Positions 50,686 through 62,590 of a DNA stretch of 64,000 nt are shown here, piece after piece. The position numbers and the translations under genes were made by a program. Numbering within the stretch: the first letter of the stretch is position 1; every line of letters begins with the position of its first letter. The notes beneath the pieces are model-generated. The model did not search any database. It was not told the DNA's origin and worked only from the letters and a program-made list of their open reading frames with translations. The stretch comes from Vicinamibacterales bacterium (GTDB lineage: Bacteria > Acidobacteriota > Vicinamibacteria > Vicinamibacterales > UBA8438), in the NCBI GenBank assembly GCA_965207595.1, contig CBDBMW010000012.1, positions 898,462 through 962,461 of the forward strand, in the 5' to 3' direction.

Positions 50686-50701
50686 GGTGGCGGAGAGAGT
50701 G
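50686..50701. repeat. distal att-like direct repeat (copy of the tRNA-Ser 3' end)
   Basis: GGTGGCGGAGAGAGTG is identical to 62496-62511. Confidence 0.75.
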
Positions 50702-50839
50702 TCCACGCACTTTCGCTTTCCGAGGATGTCCGCCGACGTCCGACATCGACTCACGTAAATTCCTTAGAAAAAATGAGTTGTGCGTCCTGTCGTTCCGACA
50801 GTGTCCGACGTGTTTCACCTGCATCCCAAATGTAATTGG

Positions 50840-50848
50840 TGGTATAAT
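50840..50848 (+). promoter_or_regulatory. extended -10 element TGGTATAAT upstream of the integrase
   Basis: This is a TGnTATAAT match 39 nt upstream of GTG 50887. The region also carries repeated (G/T)TCCGAC motifs at 50738, 50794 and 50803. Confidence 0.35.
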
Positions 50849-50886
50849 CGGGGGGAGGTTGAAGCCGGAAGAGACGGCGAAAGTCA

Positions 50887-52098
50887 GTGGCCCCGTACCC
50901 GAAGAAGCCCCGCACCACCAAGCGACGCGGCCGGCACCCCGACCGAGCCCTCAGCGCGGTCTTCTGCCGTAACGTCGCCGAAGCCGGCCGGTACTGCGAC
51001 GGCAATGGCCTGTATCTCGAGGTCGACCCGACCGGCGCTCGCCGCTGGGTCCAACGTCTCGTCATCCGCGGAAAGCCCCGCACGCTCGGGCTCGGCGGGT
51101 TCGCTCTCGTCACGCTCGCCGAGGCACGCGAGGCGGCACTCGCCAACCGCAGGCTCGCACGGTCCGGCGGCGACCCGCTCGCCGCGCGCTGTCGCGCACG
51201 GGACATGCCGACCTTCGAGGAGGCCGCGGCCGCAGTCCTCGAACAGAAGCGGGCAGGCTGGCGGAACGAGAAGCACGGGAAGGACTGGCCCACGAGCCTG
51301 CGGCTCTACGTCTTCCCGCAGATCGGCGACAAGCCGGTCTCCGAGATCACCTCGGCCGACCTGCTGCAGGTGCTCGCGCCCATCTGGCACGCGAAGCCGG
51401 AGACGGCACGCCGCGTTCGTCAGCGGATCGGCGCCGTCATGAAGTGGGCCGTTGCCATGGAACACCGCGCTGACAACCCGGCCGGCGACGCGCTCGGCGA
51501 GGCGCTCGGCCGCCAGCAGGACGTCGTGCGGCACATGCCGGCGCTCCCGCACCCCGAGGTCGGTGCAGCGGTCGAGGCGGTGCGGGCCTCCGGGGCGTGG
51601 GTCGGAACGAAGCTCGCGTTCGAGTACCTCGTGCTGACGGCGGCCCGTTCCGCGGAGGTACGCCTCGCGACCTGGGACGAGATCGACGTCGCGACCGCCG
51701 TCTGGACCGTCCCTGGCTCCCGCATGAAGGTCAAGCGCCCGCACCGCGTGCCGCTGTCCGAGCGGGCGCTGGAGGTCGTCGACCAGGCGCGGGCGCTTCG
51801 TGGCGACGCGGCCACCCCAGGGAGCGCACTCGTATTCCCGAGCCGGCGACAGAAGCCCCTCTCGAACATGACGCTGTCGAAGCTGGTTCGGGAGCAAGGC
51901 ATCAACGCCGTGCCGCACGGTTTTCGGTCGTCGTTCCGCGACTGGGCCTCCGAGCGGACGAACCACCCGCGCGAAGTGGTCGAGGCGGCGCTCGCGCACG
52001 TCGTTGGGAACAAGGTGGAGGCAGCCTACGCGAGGTCGGACCTGTTTGACCGCCGCCGTCGACTCATGGACGAATGGGCGGATTATCTCGCCACCTGA
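50887..52098 (+). CDS. int: tyrosine recombinase, P4-type integrase (DUF4102 arm domain + catalytic domain)
   Basis: The N-terminus reads GRYCDGNGLYLEVDPTGARRWVQRLVIRGKPRTLGLGGF..LAEAREAA. The C-terminus carries ..LVLTAARSAEVRLATW.., HGFRSSFRDWA and ..AYARSDL. Confidence 0.9.
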   Translation: MAPYPKKPRTTKRRGRHPDRALSAVFCRNVAEAGRYCDGNGLYLEVDPTGARRWVQRLVIRGKPRTLGLGGFALVTLAEAREAALANRRLARSGGDPLAARCRARDMPTFEEAAAAVLEQKRAGWRNEKHGKDWPTSLRLYVFPQIGDKPVSEITSADLLQVLAPIWHAKPETARRVRQRIGAVMKWAVAMEHRADNPAGDALGEALGRQQDVVRHMPALPHPEVGAAVEAVRASGAWVGTKLAFEYLVLTAARSAEVRLATWDEIDVATAVWTVPGSRMKVKRPHRVPLSERALEVVDQARALRGDAATPGSALVFPSRRQKPLSNMTLSKLVREQGINAVPHGFRSSFRDWASERTNHPREVVEAALAHVVGNKVEAAYARSDLFDRRRRLMDEWADYLAT

Positions 52099-52342
52099 GC
52101 GAGTCATCACGCGGCGGCCCGTGACGGGTGGACCACGCCGTGGTCTTCGTGTCCCCCCTGCTTTAACGCGTGACCTGGTCCTATCTGTCCACATCTGTCC
52201 CAAAATGCCGATTTAGCAGCGCAATAATAGGGAATCACCCGCTTTCTGCGTCCACGCCGATCCGTGCCGGTCCGCCCGAATCCGAGACTCTATTGTGGTT
52301 GTGCCGTGGGTGTACAGTTCGGTCCAGAGGAGGCCGGGTCCA

Positions 52343-52490
52343 TGGAGACTGACAGCCAAGCGGGCCGAGACACTGCGGAAGCCGGGCCGGTATCGGGCGG
52401 GCGACACGGTGTACCTGGTCGTGGCCAGGGGTGGGCAGGCTCAAGTACCAGACGATTGGGGCGTTCCCTTGCGAAGCGGGACCCTCCTAG
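52343..52490 (+). pseudogene. remnant of a second P4-type integrase N-terminus
   Basis: WRLTAKRAETLRKPGRYRAGDTVYLVVARGGQA is followed, in the +1 frame, by LKYQTIGAFPCEAG. This resembles a DUF4102 arm domain, but it is frameshifted and truncated. Confidence 0.45.
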
Positions 52491-52843
52491 TCCCGGAGAC
52501 GGAGAGTGGTCGCCCCCGTCTGTTTCAGCTCGGTGAGCTTGTCGAGCCACGGGATGACAACGAACAGCACTAAGGAAAGGTACGCTGCGAGTACCAGCGT
52601 AACGTGTATGCGGGCATTATAGGCCTCGCCGTAGCTCTCGGCGATGCGGCCATACAAGATGACGTGGGCGATCTCGGCGCCGATGAGTAGGGTCGCCCAT
52701 TGCGTTCGCCGCCTAGGGGGCAACTCACCTTTCTTAGGCGCGAGAAGCCACGAGACTCCTGTGACGGTTATCGCCAGCACCAAGTACACTTGTGTGGGTG
52801 CGAACGGATCGCAAGCGCGGTCAAGCATACCTGTGATGGTCAT
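52487..52843 (-). CDS. small multi-TM membrane protein
   Basis: The 118-aa product has about three hydrophobic segments. Its start overlaps the upstream gene's end by 23 nt. Confidence 0.55.
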   Translation of the reverse strand: MTITGMLDRACDPFAPTQVYLVLAITVTGVSWLLAPKKGELPPRRRTQWATLLIGAEIAHVILYGRIAESYGEAYNARIHVTLVLAAYLSLVLFVVIPWLDKLTELKQTGATTLRLRD

Positions 52844-53372
52844 CGTAGTACCGGCGGAAGATCAGCCAGCGGCTGGCCAGCGGTGGCCATATTGCGCTGG
52901 CGTCTACCCACTCGCCGTCACGGTCGACGCTATCGTGCTCGTGACGAGAGATGTACCCCTTCTGCCCGTCAATGATCTTGTAGTGGACGCGCTTCGGATT
53001 TCGAAGCCTCAGCCGGATGGACACTTGGTCATGGTTCAGGAACGTCTTCTTGAACAAGGTCTCGTCGTCGTCGTTGAAAACACAGTCCAGCTTCAACTGC
53101 GGCGTCGTGCGGAGTTTCTCCTTGATCCTCTCGATGACGTCGGTTTGGTTGTAGATGGAGTGGGGGTTATCGTTTCCGTCGTCGTACACCAGCATTCGCC
53201 GCTCTGCCTCACCCAGCAAGAGGAGGAACTTCTTCTTGGCGATGTTGTCATCGTTCTTGATTACCTGGACGTCCACTAGAGAAGCCAACTTCAGCGCAAC
53301 GCTGACGATCCCCATGGCCAGGACGACGGTACTGAAGGTGGCAACAACGGTCCAGTCTACTCCCTCCAGCAT
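52821..53372 (-). CDS. membrane-anchored protein with a weak HKD/PLD-like motif
   Basis: Track ORF was trimmed to ATG 53372 (MLEGVDWTVVATFSTVVLAMGIVSVAL). A soluble domain ends in VHYKIIDGQKGYISRHEH (HxKxxD, two residues shorter than the canonical HxKxxxxD). Confidence 0.5.
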   Translation of the reverse strand: MLEGVDWTVVATFSTVVLAMGIVSVALKLASLVDVQVIKNDDNIAKKKFLLLLGEAERRMLVYDDGNDNPHSIYNQTDVIERIKEKLRTTPQLKLDCVFNDDDETLFKKTFLNHDQVSIRLRLRNPKRVHYKIIDGQKGYISRHEHDSVDRDGEWVDASAIWPPLASRWLIFRRYYDDHHRYA

Positions 53373-53584
53373 GATGCTACCCTTTTGTGGTGGACGAACA
53401 TTGCCGGCCGAGGATCTATAGTCGTGCCTGCAGCTGAGCACTTCGGTACGCCTATGTGCTCCTTGACGGTCGCGCTTGCCGCTGCTATGGTAGAGGCAAG
53501 CAAGTCAAAGTAAAAGCAAAGTAGTCCTGTGACGATTGTCACGAGGCCGATACGAACTGGAGGTCCGAGCGCCTGCTCTCTCAT
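53357..53584 (-). CDS. small single-TM protein
   Basis: ATG 53584 has GGAGG upstream. The product reads MREQALGPPVRIGLVTIVTGLLCFYFDLLASTIAAA.. It overlaps the next gene by 16 nt. Confidence 0.4.
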   Translation of the reverse strand: MREQALGPPVRIGLVTIVTGLLCFYFDLLASTIAAASATVKEHIGVPKCSAAGTTIDPRPAMFVHHKRVASCWRE

Positions 53585-53752
53585 GGTGAGCCTCCTCGCG
53601 TGTCCCACATTCGCCGCGTCTTCGCCTTCCGATGGCCGACGAAGCCCCTCCCCACCACCCATGGTGGAATCGGAACGATACTATATGATAGCAGTGAATA
53701 GCTAGCGATCGCCGTAAGTGACTCCTGCCAAGGGCTTTGTGGAGCCCCGGGT

Positions 53753-54569
53753 TCAGGCCGTCAAGCTCCGTTGGGCGATCACGCGCCGGCCGACGCGGAG
53801 GCTCGCCCGAGCCCTCGGTAAGCCGGTACGTCGTCCCGGCTTCGCCAATGCCGGGGCGTCCTCGTTGATGAGATCGACAACCCGGTTCCAGAGTCGGTCC
53901 AGCGGATCATACCCACGCTTAATCCGCGTGTCATCGAGGTTGCACTTGAACTCGCCGCCGGTCGTGATCAAGATCACCTCCACGTCGGCGTCCTCGGCGA
54001 TGGCACGGACCGCGTCGCTGGCGAAGGTCGCCACCACACCTTGAAGATCCACTGAACTCCCGAACAAGTTGGTCACGGACTCGGCCCCCGCGACGTCGAC
54101 CGTCAGCGGCTGGACCGTGAAGCGGCCCTCGCTGTCGCCGCGAGGGCGGATGACCACGTGCTCGACGCCGGTGTCGGCGAGACGCGCTGCCGTGACCATG
54201 CTGCCGTCGGCGTCCGGCTGGATCCACACGGTGAACACGTCGTGGGCCACCATCCCGACGACGTGGTCGTCGGTGGCCTGCGGTGCGGGCTGGTATTTCC
54301 GCCGGGAGTCCGCCGCGAGGCGGGCCACCCGAGCCATCGGTGTCTGCCCGGTGATCCTGAACTTGCGGATCCCGTGCCACTGTCCGAAAGCGCCCTGCTG
54401 CGCCGTCAGCGCCTCGCCGAGCCGGTTCCAGAAGCCGCCGATGTCGGCGGTACAGGAGTGCTCGATCCGACCGATCCGGTCCCGAACACCGATCTCGATC
54501 GCAGCCTCGACCTCTTCCTGGCTGTAGGCTGGTTCCTGGGCGCCGGTTCCAACGCCGAAGACGCCTGCC
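53753..54569 (-). pseudogene. secreted hypothetical protein, body of a gene split by the IS66-family insertion
   Basis: The reading frame stays open from track ORF 53753..54337 up to the IS boundary at 54569 (..FGVGTGAQEPAYSQEEVEAAIEIGVRDRIGRIEHS..). Confidence 0.7.
54562..54569. repeat. 8-bp target-site duplication CGCCTGCC (left)
   Basis: It is identical to 56220-56227 and directly abuts the IS terminal inverted repeat. Confidence 0.85.
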
Positions 54570-56219
54570 GTATTCGTTTAGCGCGTCGACGCCATGGACG
54601 TAGCGGAGCGGACGTTGCGACTGGGTGGTCTGCTACGACGTGAGGAGCGGCGGCGGTCGTTGGAGCTCGTCGGGCACGGTGGGGTTGGTGGCACGGAGCA
54701 TCGTGGCGATCAGCGGAGCGAGGTCGAGGTCCCGTTGGTGAGCCGTCCGGACGACGCTGGCGAGGACCTGCTGCGTGTCGGCCCCGTGGCGGGTGCGGTT
54801 GCCGCCACAGACCTTGCGGGTCACGACGGCGGGTCGGATGGCCTGTTCGGCGCGCCAGTTGGTCGCGTCGACGGACGGGTCCCAGAGGAAGGCGAACACG
54901 GCCGCGAACTCGGTGTCGAGATGCGCGGCGAAGCGCTCGGCGTCGTCGAGGGGCGGCGGCGCGGCGATGAGGCGACCGAGGCGGGCGAGCAGTCGACCGC
55001 GGACCGAGGCCAGACCGTGGTCGATCAGCTTCCCCTCGTCGCGACGGTCGCGCAGGGCGAGCCCGGCCTGCAGCACGGCTTCGAGCTCAAAGGCCCACGC
55101 GCTGTCGGGATGGTCGTCTCGAAGGTGCTTGCAGCGCCGGAGCAGGTGCGCCAGACACGTCTGGTGCACCGCGTCGTCGAAGCACCGATAGGGCGCCCAC
55201 CCGTCGCGGATGAGCACGCCGTTGAAGTCGGCCTCCAGGACGGTGAGGGCGTCGTCGAAGCTGCGGCCAGGGCAGATGGCGTAGACGGTGGTGTCCGGGG
55301 TGGCAAACACCCAGAGCCAGTGGCGCTCGCCGCCGACGCGCCAGCCGGTCTCGTCCGGGGTAACGACGGGCGCCTTGCGGACCTGCTCGCACAGGGCGGT
55401 GTAGGCCGGCGCGGCGTCGCGGGCTGCGCGATGCAGCACCTGCGCGAGGCCGCCCGGGGTGACGGTCAGCCCGAACCGGGTTCGGAGCAGATGGGCGACC
55501 TTCGCCAGCGGGACACCCAAGTGCGTGTGCAACTCCACGACCAACGCGACGACCTCCGGACCGAGCTGCGCGCTGGCGGCTCCCAGTGCATCGGAGGTCT
55601 GCAGCTGGTGGCGGCCCTGAACCCGCCGCCGACACTGCGAGCAGTGGCCGACGTCGATGTCGAAGCGGCGCACGAGGGGACGCACCACCGGGAGGTCTTC
55701 CTGGTACTGCGTCGCCACGCGGGTCACCTCGACCACGCCGCCGCAGTCCGGACACGCGGCCGGTGCCGACGCCGAGTAGTGCTCGTCGACCCGCGCCGGC
55801 CGCGGACGGAAACGCTTGGCGCCCGTAGGCCGCACCGGGGCGCCGACCGGGTCGCCCGCCGCGTCCTTGGGGGCCGTCCTTGGCAAAGGGGGCGGCTTGC
55901 CGGTATCCGGCTCGGCGCGCGGCCGCCAGTTGCTTCTCGAGGTGGTCGATCTTCCTTTTCAGGCGGTCGTTCTCACGCCGCAGGCGCTCGTTGCGGCGCT
56001 GCAGGCGTTCGTTCTCCTGTTGCAGGCCCGTGCCGTCGCCCTCGCCCCGCGTCCGCTCGCGGCGCCGCCGTTTCTCCTCCGAGCGTGGCTTCCGTTCCTG
56101 ACCGCCATTCCCAGGGCGCTCGTCAGGCACACAGGAATTATGCCATATTGTGAAAATTGTACAAGTACAAAATTATAGTTTGGCTACTCGCTCAATACGC
56201 GAACCCGGTAAACGAATAC
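54570..56219 (-). mobile_element. IS66-family element, single-ORF ISBst12-like type (1650 bp)
   Basis: The terminal inverted repeats are GTATTCGTTTA (54570-54580) and TAAACGAATAC (56209-56219). It is flanked by an 8-bp duplication and encodes an IS66-type transposase. Confidence 0.85.
54633..56130 (-). pseudogene. IS66-family transposase, interrupted by one frameshift
   Basis: The N-terminal leucine-zipper part (..ENERLQRRNERLRRENDRLKRKIDHLEKQLAAARRAGYRQAAPFAK..RPGRRPGAAYGRQAF) lies in the frame of track ORF 55087..56130. The rest (..RPRPARVDEHY..CPDCGG..DETGWRV..HWLWVF..) lies in the frame of 54633..55886. The switch is near 55800-55830. Confidence 0.8.
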
Positions 56220-56227
56220 CGCCTGCC
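56220..56227. repeat. 8-bp target-site duplication CGCCTGCC (right)
   Basis: It is identical to 54562-54569. Confidence 0.85.
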
Positions 56228-56259
56228 AACGCTATTGCTGTCGCGAAACGAACGTGCAT
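56228..56259 (-). pseudogene. displaced 5' end (start codon and first 10 codons) of the split secreted-protein gene
   Basis: ATG at 56257-56259 (minus) follows GGAGGAGAG. Joining 56259..56228 to 54569..53753 with one TSD copy removed gives an uninterrupted 849-nt ORF starting MHVRFATAIALAGVFGVGTGAQEP. Confidence 0.7.
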
Positions 56260-56378
56260 CTCTCCTCCGGTCTAGTGTCGCCCGCGGCGGAAGGCCGCGG
56301 GTCAACTCGCTGCGCGGCGGGTCTTCCGCGGGCGGTACTTCCGATCGTGCTAGGATATCCGCCTCCCAGGCGCGGAGG

Positions 56379-57164
56379 ATGTCGGTGTCCATTGCGATAG
56401 GCATGAACCTCGGACGGTACGTCTTGCTGGCTGCGGACACCAGAACGGTTTCCGAGACAGGCGAGATCCAGCGCGACGACACGAGGAAGATTCACAAGAC
56501 GTCGATGGGTCTCATCACAGGCACTGGATTGTCCGGCCTCTTGGAGCTGGTTGCGTCGGGTCTCGCCGAGACGAAGGTCACCGACACCGACCAGATCCTC
56601 GCGCTCATACAGGGGAGCAGGGACGATGTTCGGCGGCGACACTGGTACGCGCGTCCGAAGGTACGCGAAGCTGTCGAGCACGAAACCGGTTGGTTGTTCA
56701 CTTACGTTACGCCGGATACGGATCCGCCTAACCTCAGGCTGGCTGCATGGCACCCATCAAGAGGCGAACGGCTCGCTCTTTTCTCCCCGAACAGTGGGAC
56801 GGTGTTGTACCCACAAGAGTACTCGGATCCAGCGGCTCGTGCTTGCACGGAGCGCCTAGACGCCGAGATGGCGGCACCGACCGACGACTCATCGCTGGAC
56901 AAGAACATATCCCACAACATCCGACTGGCACTCAGCGTGATCCGTGAGGTCGCGCGGCGATCGCCCTCTGTGTCACCCCTCGCCACGATCGGGTTGTGCT
57001 TTGGGAACGGCGCGCCGGTAATAACGGACATCATAGGCCCCGAAGAGACCCCCGAAGTCAAGATTGTTGAGTCGGCCGACTCGGCCGCTTCGAGTCCGTT
57101 GGGCGCGCCACCGACTGGAAGGCATCCTTGCGGCCCTACCACTGGTGACTCCGGAGAACCCTGA
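56379..57164 (+). CDS. proteasome beta-subunit / Ntn-hydrolase (T1)-like protein
   Basis: Track ORF 56157..57164 starts inside the IS and was trimmed to ATG 56379. MSVSIAIGMNLGRYVLLAADTRTVSETGEIQRDDTRKIHKTSMGLITGTGLSG parallels the proteasome-beta/HslV/Anbu N-terminal signature. Confidence 0.5.
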   Translation: MSVSIAIGMNLGRYVLLAADTRTVSETGEIQRDDTRKIHKTSMGLITGTGLSGLLELVASGLAETKVTDTDQILALIQGSRDDVRRRHWYARPKVREAVEHETGWLFTYVTPDTDPPNLRLAAWHPSRGERLALFSPNSGTVLYPQEYSDPAARACTERLDAEMAAPTDDSSLDKNISHNIRLALSVIREVARRSPSVSPLATIGLCFGNGAPVITDIIGPEETPEVKIVESADSAASSPLGAPPTGRHPCGPTTGDSGEP

Positions 57165-57316
57165 GCCCCTCGCGACCCTGAGCGGCGGCGCCACCCCTGA
57201 GACATCTATCAGACAGGTGACAAGGCGCCGGCTCGGATGACCTTGCTGGATTTGGGGGCGAGCCGCTTCGCATGTGCCTTCGGGATCGCGTGGCCTCGCC
57301 ACGACCTTGGCTTGAC

Positions 57317-57347
57317 GACCCTCAGCCTGCGTGTCAGGCTGAGGGTC
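57317..57347 (+). other. perfect 13-bp stem / 5-nt loop hairpin abutting a start codon
   Basis: GACCCTCAGCCTG-cgtgt-CAGGCTGAGGGTC ends 1 nt before ATG 57349. Confidence 0.7.
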
Positions 57348-57348
57348 C

Positions 57349-57579
57349 ATGACCGAGGAGGACGACGCCGGCCCCTCGGAAGACGATCTGGACCCGGACT
57401 CCGACGCGGCAGTTGATTGGGACGACAGACCGGCGGTCGAGCAGGAGAATCTCGACCCTCCAGATGAGGACTCGGAAGGGTCGGCCTGGAGCCGCTACCG
57501 CGGCGAGAGTTCTGGCTCAGCTGATCCGCCTTGGAACCTGTCGCCGATCGACCTGCGGCCCCGGTGGGGAACGTCGTGA
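57349..57579 (+). CDS. small highly acidic hypothetical protein
   Basis: The 76-aa product has a D/E-rich N-terminal half (MTEEDDAGPSEDDLDPDSDAAVDWDDRPAVEQENLDPPDEDSEG). Confidence 0.35.
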   Translation: MTEEDDAGPSEDDLDPDSDAAVDWDDRPAVEQENLDPPDEDSEGSAWSRYRGESSGSADPPWNLSPIDLRPRWGTS

Positions 57580-57809
57580 CCGTTCTCAACTACCCGCGTC
57601 ACTCCGTCGAATCCGGGACTCCCCGGCAGAGTCCAACTAAACGGGCAGACGCGCTCTGGCTCACGCACCTGATGGATGCCTTGGATGCCCCGAAGTTACT
57701 CATACGTCTGGCAGAAGATGCACACCGCAGTCAGCTCCCTCTGCGGCGCGGGCTCGTTTGCGGAGCGCCTGGAAGGGGCGACCGTTTCCGGCCTTGTGTT
57801 GCTCGGTGA
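57576..57809 (+). CDS. hypothetical ORF, possibly the 5' part of a frameshifted gene
   Basis: GTG 57576 overlaps the previous stop (GTGA). The product reads VTVLNYPRHSVESG..ALWLTHLMDALDAPKLLIRLAEDAH.. The frame becomes Arg/Gly-rich after ~57725. Confidence 0.3.
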   Translation: MTVLNYPRHSVESGTPRQSPTKRADALWLTHLMDALDAPKLLIRLAEDAHRSQLPLRRGLVCGAPGRGDRFRPCVAR

Positions 57810-57996
57810 GGAAGATGTCGGTGAGGACCTCCGGGAGGATCTCCGATTCATCCATCGTTGGACGAAGAATAATGTGGCCGGTGGACACCTCATCAAGCCC
57901 CTGGAGGCTCAGGATCAGTCGCAGCTCGTAGAGAAGATGTTTCACGTCCTCTACGAGTCTCGCGAGCGGGATAGGTCGATTCGAAGGGGAGCATAG
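57676..57996 (+). CDS. hypothetical protein
   Basis: The sequence is protein-like from ~57720 onward (..TAVSSLCGAGSFAERLEGATVSGLVLLGEEDVGEDLREDLRFIHRW..VEKMFHVLYESRE). It overlaps the previous ORF in another frame. Confidence 0.35.
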   Translation: MPWMPRSYSYVWQKMHTAVSSLCGAGSFAERLEGATVSGLVLLGEEDVGEDLREDLRFIHRWTKNNVAGGHLIKPLEAQDQSQLVEKMFHVLYESRERDRSIRRGA

Positions 57997-58118
57997 GCGA
58001 AGGACCGCGCCAGTTTCCGTCAGTTTCCGGGTGCGTGCGCCCCACGCGTCCCTCGGTTCCGCGTGCCATCCCTGGGCCTCCGCGGGTGGGTCTTCAGGGT
58101 GCGCGGGGTCCACGCCCG

Positions 58119-58670
58119 TCACGAGCCTCGGGCTTGGCCTCGCCGCGCAACCGACATCTCCTGAGCTACCCTGGCTCCAGTGGATGTGATCACATACCGT
58201 GCTGAGGTAGACCGTCGACTCTCGCAGCGGATGAACTCTCCTGTCTCCAGAACGTGGATCGCTGATGCGAGCCTGAGCGCCTCCGCGGCGGTGGCGGAGG
58301 CTGCCTGCGTGCCACCGACCTCGATTGAGATTGGTTCATCGACCCTCAGATCGACGCCGCTATAGCTGTGGCCGGCTGTCCATACCCGTCCGGTACGGCG
58401 GAGCCTGCCGTCGGGAGCCTCGGCTACGAGGTAGAGGAGGTGCCCCGGCAGTGTTGCCATGGAGCACTGCCGCCAGTCGGCTAACAACCACGCCGCCGGT
58501 TTGGCCGACAGATGTACTTCCGGTCGCACTGTCGGTGTGTCTGCCGGATCAGGATCGGCGTCACGCAGACGTAGGATCTCCGGGCTACGCCTTTGCCGTC
58601 GGAACGTCGGCACCCACCTGGACACCACAGAGGCTAACAGCGAGACCAAGAAGTCCACGATGACGGCCAC
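58119..58670 (-). CDS. hypothetical protein with an N-terminal hydrophobic segment
   Basis: The 183-aa product starts MAVIVDFLVSLLASVVSRWV... No family was recognised. Confidence 0.45.
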   Translation of the reverse strand: MAVIVDFLVSLLASVVSRWVPTFRRQRRSPEILRLRDADPDPADTPTVRPEVHLSAKPAAWLLADWRQCSMATLPGHLLYLVAEAPDGRLRRTGRVWTAGHSYSGVDLRVDEPISIEVGGTQAASATAAEALRLASAIHVLETGEFIRCESRRSTSARYVITSTGARVAQEMSVARRGQARGS

Positions 58671-58899
58671 TGACGTCTCCTAGAGCCGTCTGGCGCTACG
58701 TGTTACGAGCGCCACCCTCTCAGATAGAGGTGCTGACGGTGGGTGCCGCACAGCTACCAGCCGCCGGTCCACCCGTCTGGCCGGCGCCCAGATCGTCATC
58801 CCACCCGGCGCACCCTGCGTCGAGATCGCCATGGCTTTGCCAGGTACGCCAACCGCCATCTGGCGCACAGGGGGATCTGAACCGGACACAGTCGACAAC

Positions 58900-59397
58900 C
58901 TACTCGTCGGGATTCTCCTCCCGTTGTGCGTCTCCCGAATCACCCGCCGCTCCGACTCGCTGCCGGAACCCCTCAATGCGGTTCGACGGCACCACCGCCT
59001 CGTCGAAGCCTGGTAGCGGACGATACTCACCGCACCAGTCTGTGCGCTTCGTCTCCGGCCAGGCTGTCTCGACGTTCAGGAACAGCCTCGCTGGGTTTCC
59101 ACCATATCCGCCGAGTTGAACCAGCTCCTTCGCCACTAGGCTTGGTGGGTTCCTCTGGCAGTAGCAGTTGTCCCAGGTCTTGTGGCTGACACCGCCAGAG
59201 GAAGACAGCGTCCGCTTGGTACCAGAGTGCCTCCGGTAGAACACACAGTTGGCGCAGCACTGGGTTGTACTCAGCCAGTCTTCTTCGGACAGGAACTTGG
59301 CCCCGGCCTGCCTGTCCTCTGCGGACTCGGTCAGTTCTCGCAGACGGGCTCTAGCAGCCTGCCTTCGATCCTGTGCGCGGGGGTCCGGTTCTGTCAT
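58900..59397 (-). CDS. Cys-rich hypothetical protein
   Basis: Track ORF 58900..59760 was trimmed to ATG 59397 (MTEPDPRAQDRR..). It contains CCANCVFY..CYCQRNPP..WPETKRTDWCGEY. Confidence 0.45.
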   Translation of the reverse strand: MTEPDPRAQDRRQAARARLRELTESAEDRQAGAKFLSEEDWLSTTQCCANCVFYRRHSGTKRTLSSSGGVSHKTWDNCYCQRNPPSLVAKELVQLGGYGGNPARLFLNVETAWPETKRTDWCGEYRPLPGFDEAVVPSNRIEGFRQRVGAAGDSGDAQREENPDE

Positions 59398-59772
59398 CTG
59401 GCTTCTCCGTCGGCCAGTGGATCGGATTCTCGTGGTCAGACGCTGCACTTGGCCGGCCCGCCGCAGTCTCTCCGGGACATCAGGGATCTTACTCGGACGA
59501 CGCCAACCTGGGGCGGGTCGTCGGGGATGCTGGCCAATGCTGGCCGACGCCGACCGGATGATCCGGGCCATCACCGCTTGTTGGAGGATTCCTGCCTGGC
59601 CTGCCGATCCGTCACGCGATCCTCTTGACTGGTCCCCCGCGAGTCCCCTGCGGCAAGCACCGTGCCAACAGCAGTCCTGGCACGGACCTTGTCGGGCGCG
59701 AGAGGAGTGAGATGAGAGCAGACTGGATCGACCGGACGTTTCTGTTGCTGGTACCCTCACGAGGTTAGTGTC

Positions 59773-59946
59773 TCAGCTTGATCCACCAGCCCGTCGAACG
59801 AGCACGACGAAGGCGACGACCAGAATCGCGACTCCCACCACGCCGGGCCCGCCGATCGCGAGGAGCGCGTCGGGGAACAACCAGACGGCGAGCCCGCAGA
59901 CGACGAGCCACAGCACGAAGGCCGTGCCGAGCACGTCGCCGCGCAT
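59773..59946 (-). CDS. possible small two-TM protein
   Basis: The sequence MRGDVLGTAFVLWLVVCGLAVWLFPDALLAIGGPGVVGVAILVVAFVVLV is hydrophobic. The start is uncertain. Confidence 0.3.
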   Translation of the reverse strand: MRGDVLGTAFVLWLVVCGLAVWLFPDALLAIGGPGVVGVAILVVAFVVLVRRAGGSS

Positions 59947-60180
59947 CAGAAGTACTCCTCGCTGAAGGCATCGGCCCATGGGCCGGATCATGCCACACGA
60001 GTGCTGCATCAACGAAAGCCCTAGCCCGCGACGCTTCGATTCTGAGTTCGGAATCCCGCACAGAAGTACGCGACGACTGCCCAGGCTGGGATGACCAGAT
60101 TGGGTATTCCGGACATCGTGAACGCTCATCGGTAGCCGTGATCGCCGCACGCTGCGCCCATCCGAGAGGAGGGCGAGGCG

Positions 60181-61737
60181 ATGGCGGCAGCGAGGCTACT
60201 GATGAGGAAGATTCGTGAGATCCTCCGGCTCAAGCACGAGCAGGGGCTGTCGCACCGGGCAATAGCCCAGGCGTGCTCGATCGGCGTCGGGACGGTCACG
60301 CTGTACCTGCAGCGGATGGCCCGGCGCGGGGTGGGCTGGCCGTTGCCGGCCGAGCTCGACGACGCGGCCCTCGAGGCCCAGCTGTTCTCGCGGGCCGCGC
60401 CGGTGCGCAACCGGGCGCGACCCGACTGCGCGTACATCCACCGCGAGCGCAAGCGCGACGGCGTCACGCTGCAGCTCCTGTGGGAGGAGTACGCCCAGGT
60501 CCATCCCGACGGCTACCGCTACACGCAGTTCTGCGAGATCTACCGGCAGTGGGCGCGGCGGCTGCGGCCGTCGATGCGGCATGTCCACCGGGCCGGCGAG
60601 AAGACGTTCATCGACTTCTCCGGTAAACGGCCGACGGTGGTCGACCCCCGGACGGGCGAAGCGCGGCGCGTCGAGCTGTTCGTCGCCGTGCTCGGCGCCA
60701 GCAGCCTCACCTACGCCGAGGCGACCGAGAGCCAGCAGCTGCCCGACTGGGTCGCCGCCCACATCCGGATGGTCGAGTACTTCGGGGGCACGACCACGCT
60801 GTGGGTCCCCGACCAGCTCAAGAGCGCGGTCACACGTCCCTGCCGCTACGAGCCGGGCGTCAACCGGACCTACGAGGACCTCGCCGCCCACTACGGCGCC
60901 GTCGTGCTGCCCGCGCGGCCGAGGAAGCCTCGGGACAAGGCCGCCGTCGAGGGAAGCGTGCTCGTCGCCCAGCGGTGGATCCTCGCGCGCCTCCGGGACC
61001 AGACCTTCTTCACCCTCGGCGCCCTCAACACGGCGATCCGCGTGCTGCTCGACGAGCTCAACGACCGGCCGATGAAGAAGCTCGGCGTCAGCCGCCGCGC
61101 CCTCTACGAGCAGCTCGACCGCCCCGCCCTCCGACCCCTGCCGGCCGACCGCTACGTCCTCGCCCAGTGGAAGCGGTGCCGCGTCAACATCGACTACCAC
61201 GTCCTCGTCGAGCGCCACGCCTACAGCGTGCCGTTTCAGCTCCTCCGCCAGCAGGTCGAGGTCCGCTACACCACGGCGACCGTCGAGGTCTTCTTCAAAG
61301 GCCGCCGGGTGACGTCCCACCCGCGACGCTACGACGGGCAGCCGTCCACCGTCGCCGAGCACATGCCGAGCGCCCACCGCGCCCACGCCGAGTGGACGCC
61401 GTCGCGCCTCATCCGCTGGGCCGAGAAGGCCGGCCCCGCGACCGGCCAGCTCGTGGACCGCATCCTGCGCAGCCGCCCGCATCCGGAGCAGGGGTACCGG
61501 GCCGTCCTCGGCATCATGCGCCTGGGGCGGCAGCACGGCAACGACCGGCTCGACGCCGCCTGCGCCCGCGCCATCGCCCTCGGTTCCTGCCGCTTCGACA
61601 CCGTCAGGAACATCCTCGCCGCCGGCCAGGACCGGCTGCCCTTCGAGCCGCCCGCCGAGACGGCACCGACACCCGCGCACGACAACATCCGCGGCGCCGC
61701 CTACTACGCCGCGACCACCCGGGAGGACCCATGCTGA
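60181..61737 (+). CDS. istA: IS21-family transposase IstA
   Basis: The HTH N-terminus reads MRKIREILRLKHEQGLSHRAIAQACSIGVGTVTLYL. The DDE core carries ..EKTFIDFSG.., ..LWVPDQLKSAV.. and ..PARPRKPRDKAAVEGSV... Confidence 0.9.
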   Translation: MAAARLLMRKIREILRLKHEQGLSHRAIAQACSIGVGTVTLYLQRMARRGVGWPLPAELDDAALEAQLFSRAAPVRNRARPDCAYIHRERKRDGVTLQLLWEEYAQVHPDGYRYTQFCEIYRQWARRLRPSMRHVHRAGEKTFIDFSGKRPTVVDPRTGEARRVELFVAVLGASSLTYAEATESQQLPDWVAAHIRMVEYFGGTTTLWVPDQLKSAVTRPCRYEPGVNRTYEDLAAHYGAVVLPARPRKPRDKAAVEGSVLVAQRWILARLRDQTFFTLGALNTAIRVLLDELNDRPMKKLGVSRRALYEQLDRPALRPLPADRYVLAQWKRCRVNIDYHVLVERHAYSVPFQLLRQQVEVRYTTATVEVFFKGRRVTSHPRRYDGQPSTVAEHMPSAHRAHAEWTPSRLIRWAEKAGPATGQLVDRILRSRPHPEQGYRAVLGIMRLGRQHGNDRLDAACARAIALGSCRFDTVRNILAAGQDRLPFEPPAETAPTPAHDNIRGAAYYAATTREDPC

Positions 61738-61991
61738 TCGAAGAGACCCTCGACAAGCTCAACGCCATGAAGATCGGCGCCATGGCCGACGCCTGCCGCC
61801 AGCAGATGCAGACCGACGAGGCCGCCGCGCTCGCCTTCGAGGAGCGTCTCGGTCTCCTCGTCGACGCCGAATGGACCGCCCGCGAGCAGCGCAAGCTGCA
61901 GCGGCGACTCCACTCCGCCAAGCTCCGTTACCCGGCGACGCTCGAGGCCGTCGACTTCAGCCACCCGCGACGGCTCAACCGCCAGCAGGTC
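61731..61991 (+). pseudogene. istB: IS21-family helper ATPase IstB, only the N-terminal ~87 codons retained
   Basis: ATG 61731 overlaps the istA stop. MLIEETLDKLNAMKIGAMADACRQQMQ..EERLGLLVDAEWTAREQRKLQRRLHSAKLRYPATLEAVDFSHPRRLNRQQV is IstB-like. After ~61991 there is no Walker A and the frame runs on as unrelated sequence to 62207. Confidence 0.75.
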
Positions 61992-62495
61992 ACTACGCCT
62001 GGCACGGAGGGCCGGGCGTTCGCGTTGCACGACCCTGACCGCCCGTTTCCGGCGGCTTGTCGCGATCCCTTCGGCGCGGCGTTCGAGCTGTTGTCGGGAG
62101 GCAGATGCTCCGGAAGCGCCCGCGGCGGATGCGTGGGAGACCTGGCGCAACGGGTTGTCGCGAGTGAGCGCCCGAGGGTCGTCTGCTACAGTCCCGCTGC
62201 GTCCTAGTTCCGCCGTTCGGGCGATCGGACCGCGGGCCGGTCCCGAGCGCGGCTTCTCGCGGCGACCGGCCGGCGGAGACGGTGGGTTGAACATCAGAAG
62301 GTGCAGCTTGGACTCCCGTCAGCGACGAGCCGGAACGCACCCAAGTACTCCGCGAGGGTGGGGCAACTCTGGCCGGGTTTCCGGGGAGAGCCTGAGCCGT
62401 CCGCTGATGTCCGATTCAGAATTGGGGGCAAGAAGAGGAGGAGGTGGACTTCCTTGGGAGATAAGTTTCTACTTTGCAAGTGTTTACGGACGCAT

Positions 62496-62511
62496 GGTGG
62501 CGGAGAGAGTG
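62496..62511. repeat. proximal att-like direct repeat within the 3' end of tRNA-Ser
   Basis: GGTGGCGGAGAGAGTG is identical to 50686-50701. Confidence 0.75.
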
Positions 62512-62590
62512 GGATTCGAACCCACGGTAGGAGGATCACCCCTACACACGCTTTCCAAGCGTGCTCCTTCAACCACTCGGACATCTCTCC
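62498..62590 (-). tRNA. tRNA-Ser (anticodon GGA)
   Basis: The minus strand reads GGAGAGATGTCCGAGTGGTTGAAGGAGCACGCTTGGAAAGCGTGTGTAGGGGTGATCCTCCTACCGTGGGTTCGAATCCCACTCTCTCCGCCA. It has a 7-bp acceptor stem, a CACGC/GCGTG anticodon stem with loop TTGGAAA, a long variable arm, a GTGGG-TTCGAAT-CCCAC T-arm and an encoded CCA. Confidence 0.9.

Follow-up and report, generated by a model that had tools for sequence, protein, structure and literature searches.

A solitary proteasome-beta-like gene with a predicted N-terminal serine nucleophile, carried on a tRNA-Ser island of a Vicinamibacterales bacterium

Solitary homologues of the proteasome are a known class of uncharacterised enzymes, of which 22 subfamilies have been catalogued (WPH, PHI, PMI-1 to PMI-6, DAH, GPH, AAH, PPH, FC1 to FC5 and others; Fuchs, Alva and Lupas 2021, PMC8665760). 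They carry Thr1 or Ser1 together with Asp17, Lys33 and Gly47, have neither an AAA+ partner nor a conserved or informative gene context, and are patchily distributed across domains, with signs of horizontal transfer, several phage-carried representatives and variable C-terminal appendages (PMC8665760). A propeptide has been reported for no homologue except proteasome beta and HslV, insertions at the pore-loop site may block ring assembly, and rings are not universal in the superfamily, as Anbu and Connectase illustrate, while the wider clan of N-terminal nucleophile (Ntn) hydrolases is highly diverse in function (PMC8665760). The survey drew on the August 2020 release of NCBI nr, admitted only clusters with 10 or more representatives, and foresaw further families of this kind (PMC8665760). 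In the literature searched, we found no report of experimental work on the catalogued subfamilies. Here, we describe a gene that adds a member, and probably a subfamily, to this class. It lies at positions 56385 to 57164 of a 64,000-nucleotide stretch of DNA, hereafter the window, from a Vicinamibacterales bacterium (GenBank assembly GCA_965207595.1, contig CBDBMW010000012.1, positions 898,462 to 962,461).

Our preferred reading, to which we assign a probability of roughly 0.72, is that the gene encodes a solitary proteasome-beta-like Ntn hydrolase that is processed by removal of its initiator methionine and cleaves peptides or unfolded proteins without ATP. Translation would begin at GTG 56385, and methionine aminopeptidase would strip Met1 and expose Ser1, as Ser is a permissive second residue; by analogy with Escherichia coli HslV and with the catalogued homologues that lack a propeptide, neither a propeptide nor autolysis would be needed. 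An amide bond would then be cleaved by Ser1, through its free alpha-amine and its hydroxyl, in concert with Asp17, Lys34 and the backbone amide of Gly47 (the oxyanion hole). Substrates would most probably be peptides or unfolded proteins, and cleavage would be independent of ATP because no unfoldase partner accompanies the gene. We infer these steps, from methionine removal and catalysis to peptide substrates and ATP independence, from the sequence and the predicted structure. The gene and the elements on which this proposal draws are as follows.

56385 to 57164, plus strand: proteasome-beta-like (T1-superfamily) Ntn-hydrolase gene, predicted from homologue alignment, the family hidden Markov model (HMM), the structural model and Foldseek
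56374 to 56379, plus strand: Shine-Dalgarno-like GGAGGA, read from the sequence, 5 nt upstream of GTG 56385 and overlapping or abutting ATG 56379
56388 to 56390, plus strand: codon for Ser2, the predicted N-terminal nucleophile (Ser1 once methionine is removed), aligning with Thr1 of mature proteasome beta2
56436 to 56438, plus strand: codon of Asp18 (Asp17 of the T1 catalytic set) in the A-A-D-T-R motif, aligning with ADTR of proteasome beta2
56487 to 56489, plus strand: codon of Lys35 (equivalent of Lys33 shifted by one residue; Lys34 of the mature protein), Lys in 202 of 203 family sequences
56526 to 56528, plus strand: codon of Gly48 (oxyanion-hole Gly47) in a T-G-T-G turn, Gly in all 206 family sequences

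A first-pass annotation of the window, made from the sequence alone, had read the gene as the open reading frame (ORF) 56379 to 57164 on the plus strand and had placed a Ser nucleophile directly after Met1, followed by Asp20, Lys37 and a G-x-G turn. The ORF is present with the translation quoted there, and the three downstream elements occupy those positions in ATG numbering. The two closest homologues (46-50% identity), however, start M-S-I-N-I-G-M and align with the in-frame GTG 56385 rather than with ATG 56379; tblastx likewise puts the homologue Met1 opposite 56385. Since the homologues align there, GGAGGA stands 5 nt upstream, and the distance from nucleophile to Asp becomes the canonical 16 (Ser1 to Asp17 after methionine removal) instead of 18, translation likely starts at GTG 56385, a correction of 6 nt. 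The product then probably comprises 259 aa and begins M-S-I-A-I-G-M-N-L-G-R-Y-V-L-L-A-A-D-T-R. Ser still directly follows the initiator Met, so that this part of the first-pass annotation holds while its start codon does not: the nucleophile is Ser4 of the ATG reading.

A word-indexed search with the window protein returned two relatives, and an exhaustive HMMER search with a 3-sequence profile, run over 1.84 billion cluster representatives, yielded a family of 277 representatives at E <= 1e-3, of which 176 reached E <= 1e-10. Most members have about 230 aa and align from residue 1. Based on a 31-sequence alignment, AlphaFold2 produced a model with a predicted local distance difference test score (pLDDT) of 92.1 and a predicted template-modelling score (pTM) of 0.90; an earlier model from a 3-sequence alignment was unusable (pLDDT 44). 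It shows an alpha-beta-beta-alpha sandwich, and the order of its elements, S1-S4, H1, H2, S5-S8, H3, H4 and S9-S10, is that of proteasome beta. The core fold spans residues 1 to about 222, with H1 at 50-62, H2 at 68-83, S3 at 28-30, S4 at 43-47 and a short, non-helical link between S3 and S4, and is followed at about 223-259 by a Pro/Ser/Gly-rich, non-conserved tail. Foldseek returned 1007 PDB matches at E <= 1e-3. The best 50 of these are all 20S subunits (mostly beta; eukaryotic, archaeal, Mycobacterium and Rhodococcus) or Anbu, at E from 1.5e-8 to about 2e-7, probability 1.00 and template-modelling (TM) scores of 0.53-0.71. Against viral models, the top match was gp30 of Gordonia phage Nymphadora (E = 8.6e-11), and phage proteins labelled HslV and proteasome beta were also retrieved. 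A proteasome-beta/HslV/Anbu-type Ntn fold, as surmised in the first-pass annotation, is thus well supported by the model, and with 277 representatives and a Foldseek probability of 1.00 the resemblance lies well beyond chance.

Sequence comparison is less eloquent. The window protein on its own gave nothing significant in Pfam, PADLOC, NCBIfam, PHROGs or PDB sequences, and its match to the PHROG 'peptidase HslV family' was weak (E = 0.22); a match to a potexvirus coat protein (E 0.05) was put down to chance. Searches with three sequences reached no curated family either. When the family profile was run against PDB sequences, the best matches were to proteasome beta2 subunits (E 0.014-0.05); these alignments begin at mature Thr1, include ADTR and extend to the Lys and the GxG turn. 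Anbu, archaeal beta and Connectase came next in the list. The profile search suggested in the first-pass annotation hence led, at marginal significance, to proteasome beta2 through the family, yet to no curated Pfam hit for the window protein. PF00227 matched 7 of 106 members below the gathering score (best E 0.029) and was, with Connectase_N, among the commonest, if weak, Pfam matches. Comparisons by hhalign with single sequences as templates (Thermoplasma acidophilum beta, E 0.005; Escherichia coli HslV, E 0.17) covered only the N-terminal strands, a single-sequence template being too weak to inform. On the predicted structure, the window protein is a remote homologue of the T1 superfamily, recognisable mainly by its fold.

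Compared with the described members of that superfamily, the protein shares some features with each. With the 20S proteasome beta subunit (MEROPS T1A; PF00227) it has in common the predicted fold, the element order and the alignment from mature Thr1. It differs from that subunit in lacking a propeptide and the C-terminal H5, in carrying Ser for Thr, in a Lys placed one residue later, in an extra helical segment after H2, and in not matching PF00227; its gene has neither an alpha subunit nor Mpa, ARC or Pup beside it. The nucleophile directly after the initiator Met is shared with HslV/ClpQ (T1B), the E. coli protein being encoded as M-T-T-I. HslV, at about 175 aa, is compact, has a very short pore loop and works with the HslU ATPase, and CodW of Bacillus subtilis is reportedly a natural HslV with an N-terminal Ser. 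HslV is nonetheless missing from the best 50 of the 1007 structural matches, and the hhalign comparison with the E. coli protein was insignificant. Anbu, likewise a bacterial proteasome homologue without a propeptide, matches in structure (5nyg, E 7.7e-8, TM 0.64) and at the N-terminus of the profile. Its gene belongs to a conserved operon that also encodes ATP-grasp, alpha-E and transglutaminase proteins, and Anbu itself ends in a long C-terminal coiled-coil helix; the window protein has neither the operon nor the helix.

The best structural neighbour is Nymphadora gp30 (AMS03189.1, annotated 'hypothetical protein'; E 8.6e-11, TMq 0.67), which shows the same register of M-T, Asp18 and Lys35 and belongs to a Gordonia phage that integrates at a tRNA-Ser, as does the island in the window. 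Its sequence, however, is not significantly similar (negative family-HMM score; hhalign E of 0.014 over 39 residues), and it differs in its length of 289 aa with a C-terminal extension and in its Thr nucleophile. Its gene (KU963255, 27667-28536) is read from the reverse strand, with tail genes on one side and the integrase on the other. Membership of gp30 in subfamily DAH is a guess on our part, and a paper on Gordonia prophage defence makes no mention of it.

Connectase, a proteasome homologue that is monomeric, has no partner and uses Thr1 as its nucleophile (PMC7980362), provides a further point of comparison. The window protein might, like it, act as a transpeptidase or ligase that joins or swaps protein segments instead of hydrolysing them. 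Connectase does occur among the PDB matches of the family profile (E 0.32, residues 171-210), and PF09894, its N-terminal domain, weakly matches 3 of 106 members. Still, it lacks H1 and H2 and has a two-helix lid between S3 and S4, whereas our model has both helices and only the short link; it is not in the best 50 of the 1007 structural matches, and it is limited to methanogens with MtrA as substrate, while the window family spans bacteria and archaea. We therefore regard ligase activity of this kind as very unlikely.

The catalytic residues provide the second line of evidence for a proteasome-beta-like hydrolase. Across 209 unique sequences aligned to the family HMM, with per-column totals that vary with coverage, the nucleophile column holds Thr in 152, Ser in 31 and Asn in one of 184 sequences, immediately after Met1 in 153 of them. 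The Ser of the window protein, singled out in the first-pass annotation, is thus a minority state (17% of the family), scattered among Thr-bearing relatives; a natural Ser nucleophile has precedents in CodW and in the Ser1 of the catalogued homologues. Asp is found in all 197 sequences that cover its column, Lys in 202 of 203 and Gly in all 206, so that the conservation of Ser/Thr, Asp and Lys called for in that annotation is borne out in the collected homologues; in an alignment of 106 sequences, Asp18, Lys35 and Gly48 are the only invariant columns. As nucleophile, Asp, Lys and Gly are near-invariant in about 200 divergent sequences at 22-49% identity, the pattern indicates selection for catalysis. 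Besides, the family has conserved positions of its own, namely T101 (in T101-x-W103), W103, Y107, R118, P143 and S197, all of which the window protein keeps.

Several observations weigh against this assignment. For Ser129 and Asp166, which orient Thr1 in 20S beta, no conserved counterpart is obvious in the family; S197 (87% conserved, after H4) alone may correspond to Ser169, a further residue of that set. The conserved P143 sits in the pre-H3 loop where 20S beta has G-S-G, and the extra helical segment (about 84-100) falls at the 'pore-loop' site. Isolated beta subunits, moreover, are inactive outside the assembled complex (PMC8665760). Finally, each sequence match to a characterised T1 protein is marginal (best E 0.014), with hhalign spanning the first 24-39 residues only, and the fold assignment therefore rests on the predicted structure.

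Part of this evidence would also suit an Ntn amidohydrolase whose substrate is not a protein but, for example, an acylated small molecule or an amide of the cell wall or of secondary metabolism. The functional breadth of the clan, the missing Ser129/Asp166 equivalents, the lack of an unfoldase partner, and the family's own invariant motifs T101-x-W103, Y107, R118 and P143, which could shape another pocket, are all compatible with such a role. Yet, among the matches listed, the significant structural neighbours all belong to the proteasome family, with no penicillin acylase, glutamine amidotransferase or choloylglycine hydrolase, and no biosynthetic or catabolic operon was seen at any locus examined. 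We thus consider a non-protein substrate highly improbable and retain the proteasome-beta-like hydrolase.

The family as a whole is, judged by these searches, rare and without a name, with about 280 sequence clusters. Nearly all of the 277 representatives are metagenomic, and those with a source name are all labelled 'hypothetical protein'. Among some 40 members of known source, there is one RefSeq entry (WP_274644792.1, a divergent protein of Pseudomonas serbica) and two GenBank entries from metagenomes. Hosts are scattered over Bathyarchaeia, Methanomicrobia, other Euryarchaeota, a metagenome-assembled genome (MAG) of Hyphomicrobiaceae, Pseudomonas megaplasmids and high-GC bacteria. The P. 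serbica member was considered as a bridge to the large GPH subfamily, but had only 7 relatives and gave no evidence of a link.

Some members depart from the common form. One contig (L014, 7992-8753 and 10562-11341; also L015) encodes two tandem family paralogues that are 53% identical and both carry the Thr, Asp and Lys; they could form hetero-oligomers. As this contig is low in GC and also encodes Cdc6 and ParB, it suggests an archaeal plasmid or provirus. A second ORF of 258 aa at another locus (L018) had been a candidate paralogue, but the family HMM does not match it. Other members are 334-423 aa long, with mutually unrelated C-terminal extensions (L010, 10001-11272; P0099 and P0127); the extensions of P0099 and P0127, the two that were scanned, had no Pfam match. 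In a Euryarchaeota MAG (L012, 9923-10727), the family copy is broken into an N-terminal ORF of 58 aa and a remainder of 220 aa, which reflects either a frameshifted pseudogene or an assembly error.

Such a broken copy raises the question of whether the family, or at least its window member, is a catalytically dead relic comparable to an alpha subunit or an inactive beta subunit, or a decaying pseudogene. The C-terminal tail of about 38 aa in the window protein, without counterpart in homologues and atypical in its codon-position GC, would fit this, as would an island full of insertion sequence (IS) elements. The near-invariance of the catalytic set at 22-49% identity argues against a relic, and the window ORF is full length against the family profile, has lost none of the 19 conserved positions and is preceded by a ribosome-binding site at good spacing. 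A dead protein is, in our view, barely credible, and a catalytically competent hydrolase is the reading we carry forward.

With regard to genomic context, we inspected 46 loci (homologue contigs, GTDB genomes and JGI metagenomes), which collapsed to 30 non-redundant groups. The family has no conserved neighbour among them: any given neighbour cluster is present in at most 4 of the 30 locus groups. The gene therefore stands alone, without a conserved partner. No alpha subunit, AAA+ unfoldase or HslU-like neighbour accompanies the gene in these 30 groups, and the families of the Anbu operon are absent from the per-gene Pfam annotation of six loci, from the matches in the island, and from the best 25 of 75 Pfam families among the neighbours at 23 further loci. 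The absence of these partners had already been noted in the first-pass annotation for the window and extends to the family. Its further idea, that the split secreted-protein gene, the acidic ORF and the ORF at 57676 to 57996 form a system with the proteasome-like gene, found no support, as none of the three, nor any other ORF beside the gene in the window, co-occurs with the family elsewhere.

Instead, the neighbouring domains are heterogeneous, comprising integrases, transposases, Type I and IIG restriction-modification systems, one prokaryotic Argonaute (pAgo), Mrr, Prok-E2/ThiF/JAB, DUF4917, T5orf172, PemK, Cdc6/ParB and housekeeping genes, and the family usually lies in variable or mobile DNA. 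At one locus (L013, 9006-13057), the homologue adjoins a gene for an Mrr-type restriction endonuclease and a fusion protein of 786 aa with Prok-E2, ThiF and JAB domains (ubiquitin-like conjugation), with an ImmA/IrrE-type M78 peptidase close by; this setting looks like a defence island.

This context bears on a different biological role for the same fold, namely that of an effector in conflicts of mobile elements (anti-phage defence, counter-defence or competition between elements) that would cut a single defined host or phage protein instead of carrying out bulk proteolysis. The window copy resides on an integrase island with IS66 and IS21 elements; other copies adjoin Mrr_cat, Prok-E2/ThiF/JAB, DUF4917, T5orf172, PemK/RHH, PIN_4 and transposases or have Type I and IIG restriction-modification, pAgo, PDC-S18 and integrases nearby; the taxonomic spread is patchy across domains; and the closest structural neighbour, gp30, is a phage protein encoded between tail genes and an integrase. 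However, no PADLOC model matches the protein and no partner recurs, many neighbours are ordinary housekeeping genes (Lyase_1, cyclophilin, L7Ae, HAD, ABC transporters), and the defence-gene neighbours are a heterogeneous list. Nor did we find sequence relatives in IMG/VR, INPHARED phage records or PLSDB plasmids, or, in the literature searched, any paper tying proteasome-like proteins to defence. We hence judge a conflict effector, which would be compatible with the fold assignment and differ in biological role only, to be unlikely. The most far-reaching version, a proteasome-like lineage outside the 2021 catalogue that travels as mobile-element cargo in archaea and bacteria and cleaves one specific target in phage-host or element-element conflict, is less probable still, and we give it little credence; if true, a proteasome-fold enzyme would for the first time have a part in prokaryotic immunity or counter-immunity.

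Taking the gene as a solitary proteasome-beta-like hydrolase, its place is within the class described by Fuchs et al. (2021). The solitary gene, the beta-like fold, the Thr/Ser-Asp-Lys-Gly set and insertions at the same sites are common to the catalogued subfamilies and the window family. The first-pass annotation had called the stand-alone T1-like protease a system it could not name and the best candidate for something new; this does not hold, because PMC8665760 describes exactly such proteins. The window family is probably a subfamily missing from the 2021 catalogue, as suggested indirectly by its mere three RefSeq and GenBank entries among some 40 members of known source, by the August 2020 version of nr and by the rule of at least 10 representatives. 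The existence of such a protein would not surprise a specialist, and the picture of proteasome evolution is unlikely to change. What the family adds is that the solitary proteasome-like set reaches beyond curated libraries and isolate genomes: neither Pfam, NCBIfam nor PHROG has a model dedicated to the family, and its members come almost exclusively from metagenomes. A protein of 259 aa with a natural Ser nucleophile and no propeptide represents a compact candidate for probing partner-less proteasome relatives, and the family's recurrence in mobile DNA is a clue to function that can be tested.

The window copy is carried by an island of 11.8 kb that has inserted at a tRNA-Ser gene and shows the following features.

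50686 to 62511, no strand assigned: integrative island of about 11.8 kb with the gene as cargo; an exact direct repeat of 16 bp, GGTGGCGGAGAGAGTG, marks its two ends (50686-50701 and 62496-62511)
62498 to 62590, minus strand: tRNA-Ser(GGA), whose 3' end is the right copy of the repeat
50887 to 52098, plus strand: tyrosine integrase at the left edge of the island (Pfam Arm-DNA-bind_3, Phage_int_M and Phage_integrase, E 5e-30 to 2e-16)
54570 to 56219: IS66-family element, with terminal inverted repeats of 20 nt and flanked by a target duplication of 8 bp, CGCCTGCC, at 54562-54569 and 56220-56227
57305 to 57358, plus strand: hairpin with a 13-bp perfect stem (57317-57329/57335-57347), 141 nt past the stop codon
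57349 to 57579: D/E-rich ORF downstream of the proteasome-like gene

The GC content of the window is about 0.71, and that of the 52-60 kb region is 0.58-0.66 apart from two IS elements; together with the integrase and the 16-bp attachment (att) repeats at the tRNA-Ser, this confirms the first-pass description of AT-richer island cargo, and the divergent spacer, the strong hairpin and the D/E-rich ORF reported there were recovered as well. The ORFs of the island are the integrase, IS transposases and small ORFs without matches. Its IS21-type element contains istA at 60181 to 61737. The transposase of the IS66 element lies in two frames, with a coiled-coil N-terminal part at 55087 to 56130 and a DDE part at 54633 to 55886, which points to either a frameshift mutation or programmed frameshifting.

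The IS66 insertion also explains the split of the putative secreted-protein gene divergent from the proteasome-like gene. This minus-strand ORF starts at 56259, 119 bp from ATG 56379, and is interrupted by the element; removing the IS66 in silico (joining 53753-54569 and 56228-56259, minus strand) restores an ORF of 282 aa with a signal-peptide-like N-terminus and no family match. As its codon-position GC is unusual (GC1 0.84, GC3 0.50), the restored ORF is only putatively coding. At the right end of the IS66 element (56150-56179, plus strand), sigma-70-like hexamers, GTGAAA and TATAGT with an 18-nt spacer, face the proteasome-like gene about 200 bp downstream, so that the element may supply or alter its promoter. 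Between the two divergent ORFs, a 14-nt inverted repeat (56274-56287/56326-56339; 86% complementary, arms separated by 38 nt) may serve as an operator or form an RNA structure. Downstream of the proteasome-like gene, the hairpin has a folding energy of -43.5 kcal/mol (z = -5.83; none of 200 shuffles was equally stable) and was not called by a terminator scan that depends on a U-tail; it possibly acts as a factor-independent terminator that lacks a U-tract, and the start of the acidic ORF lies within it.

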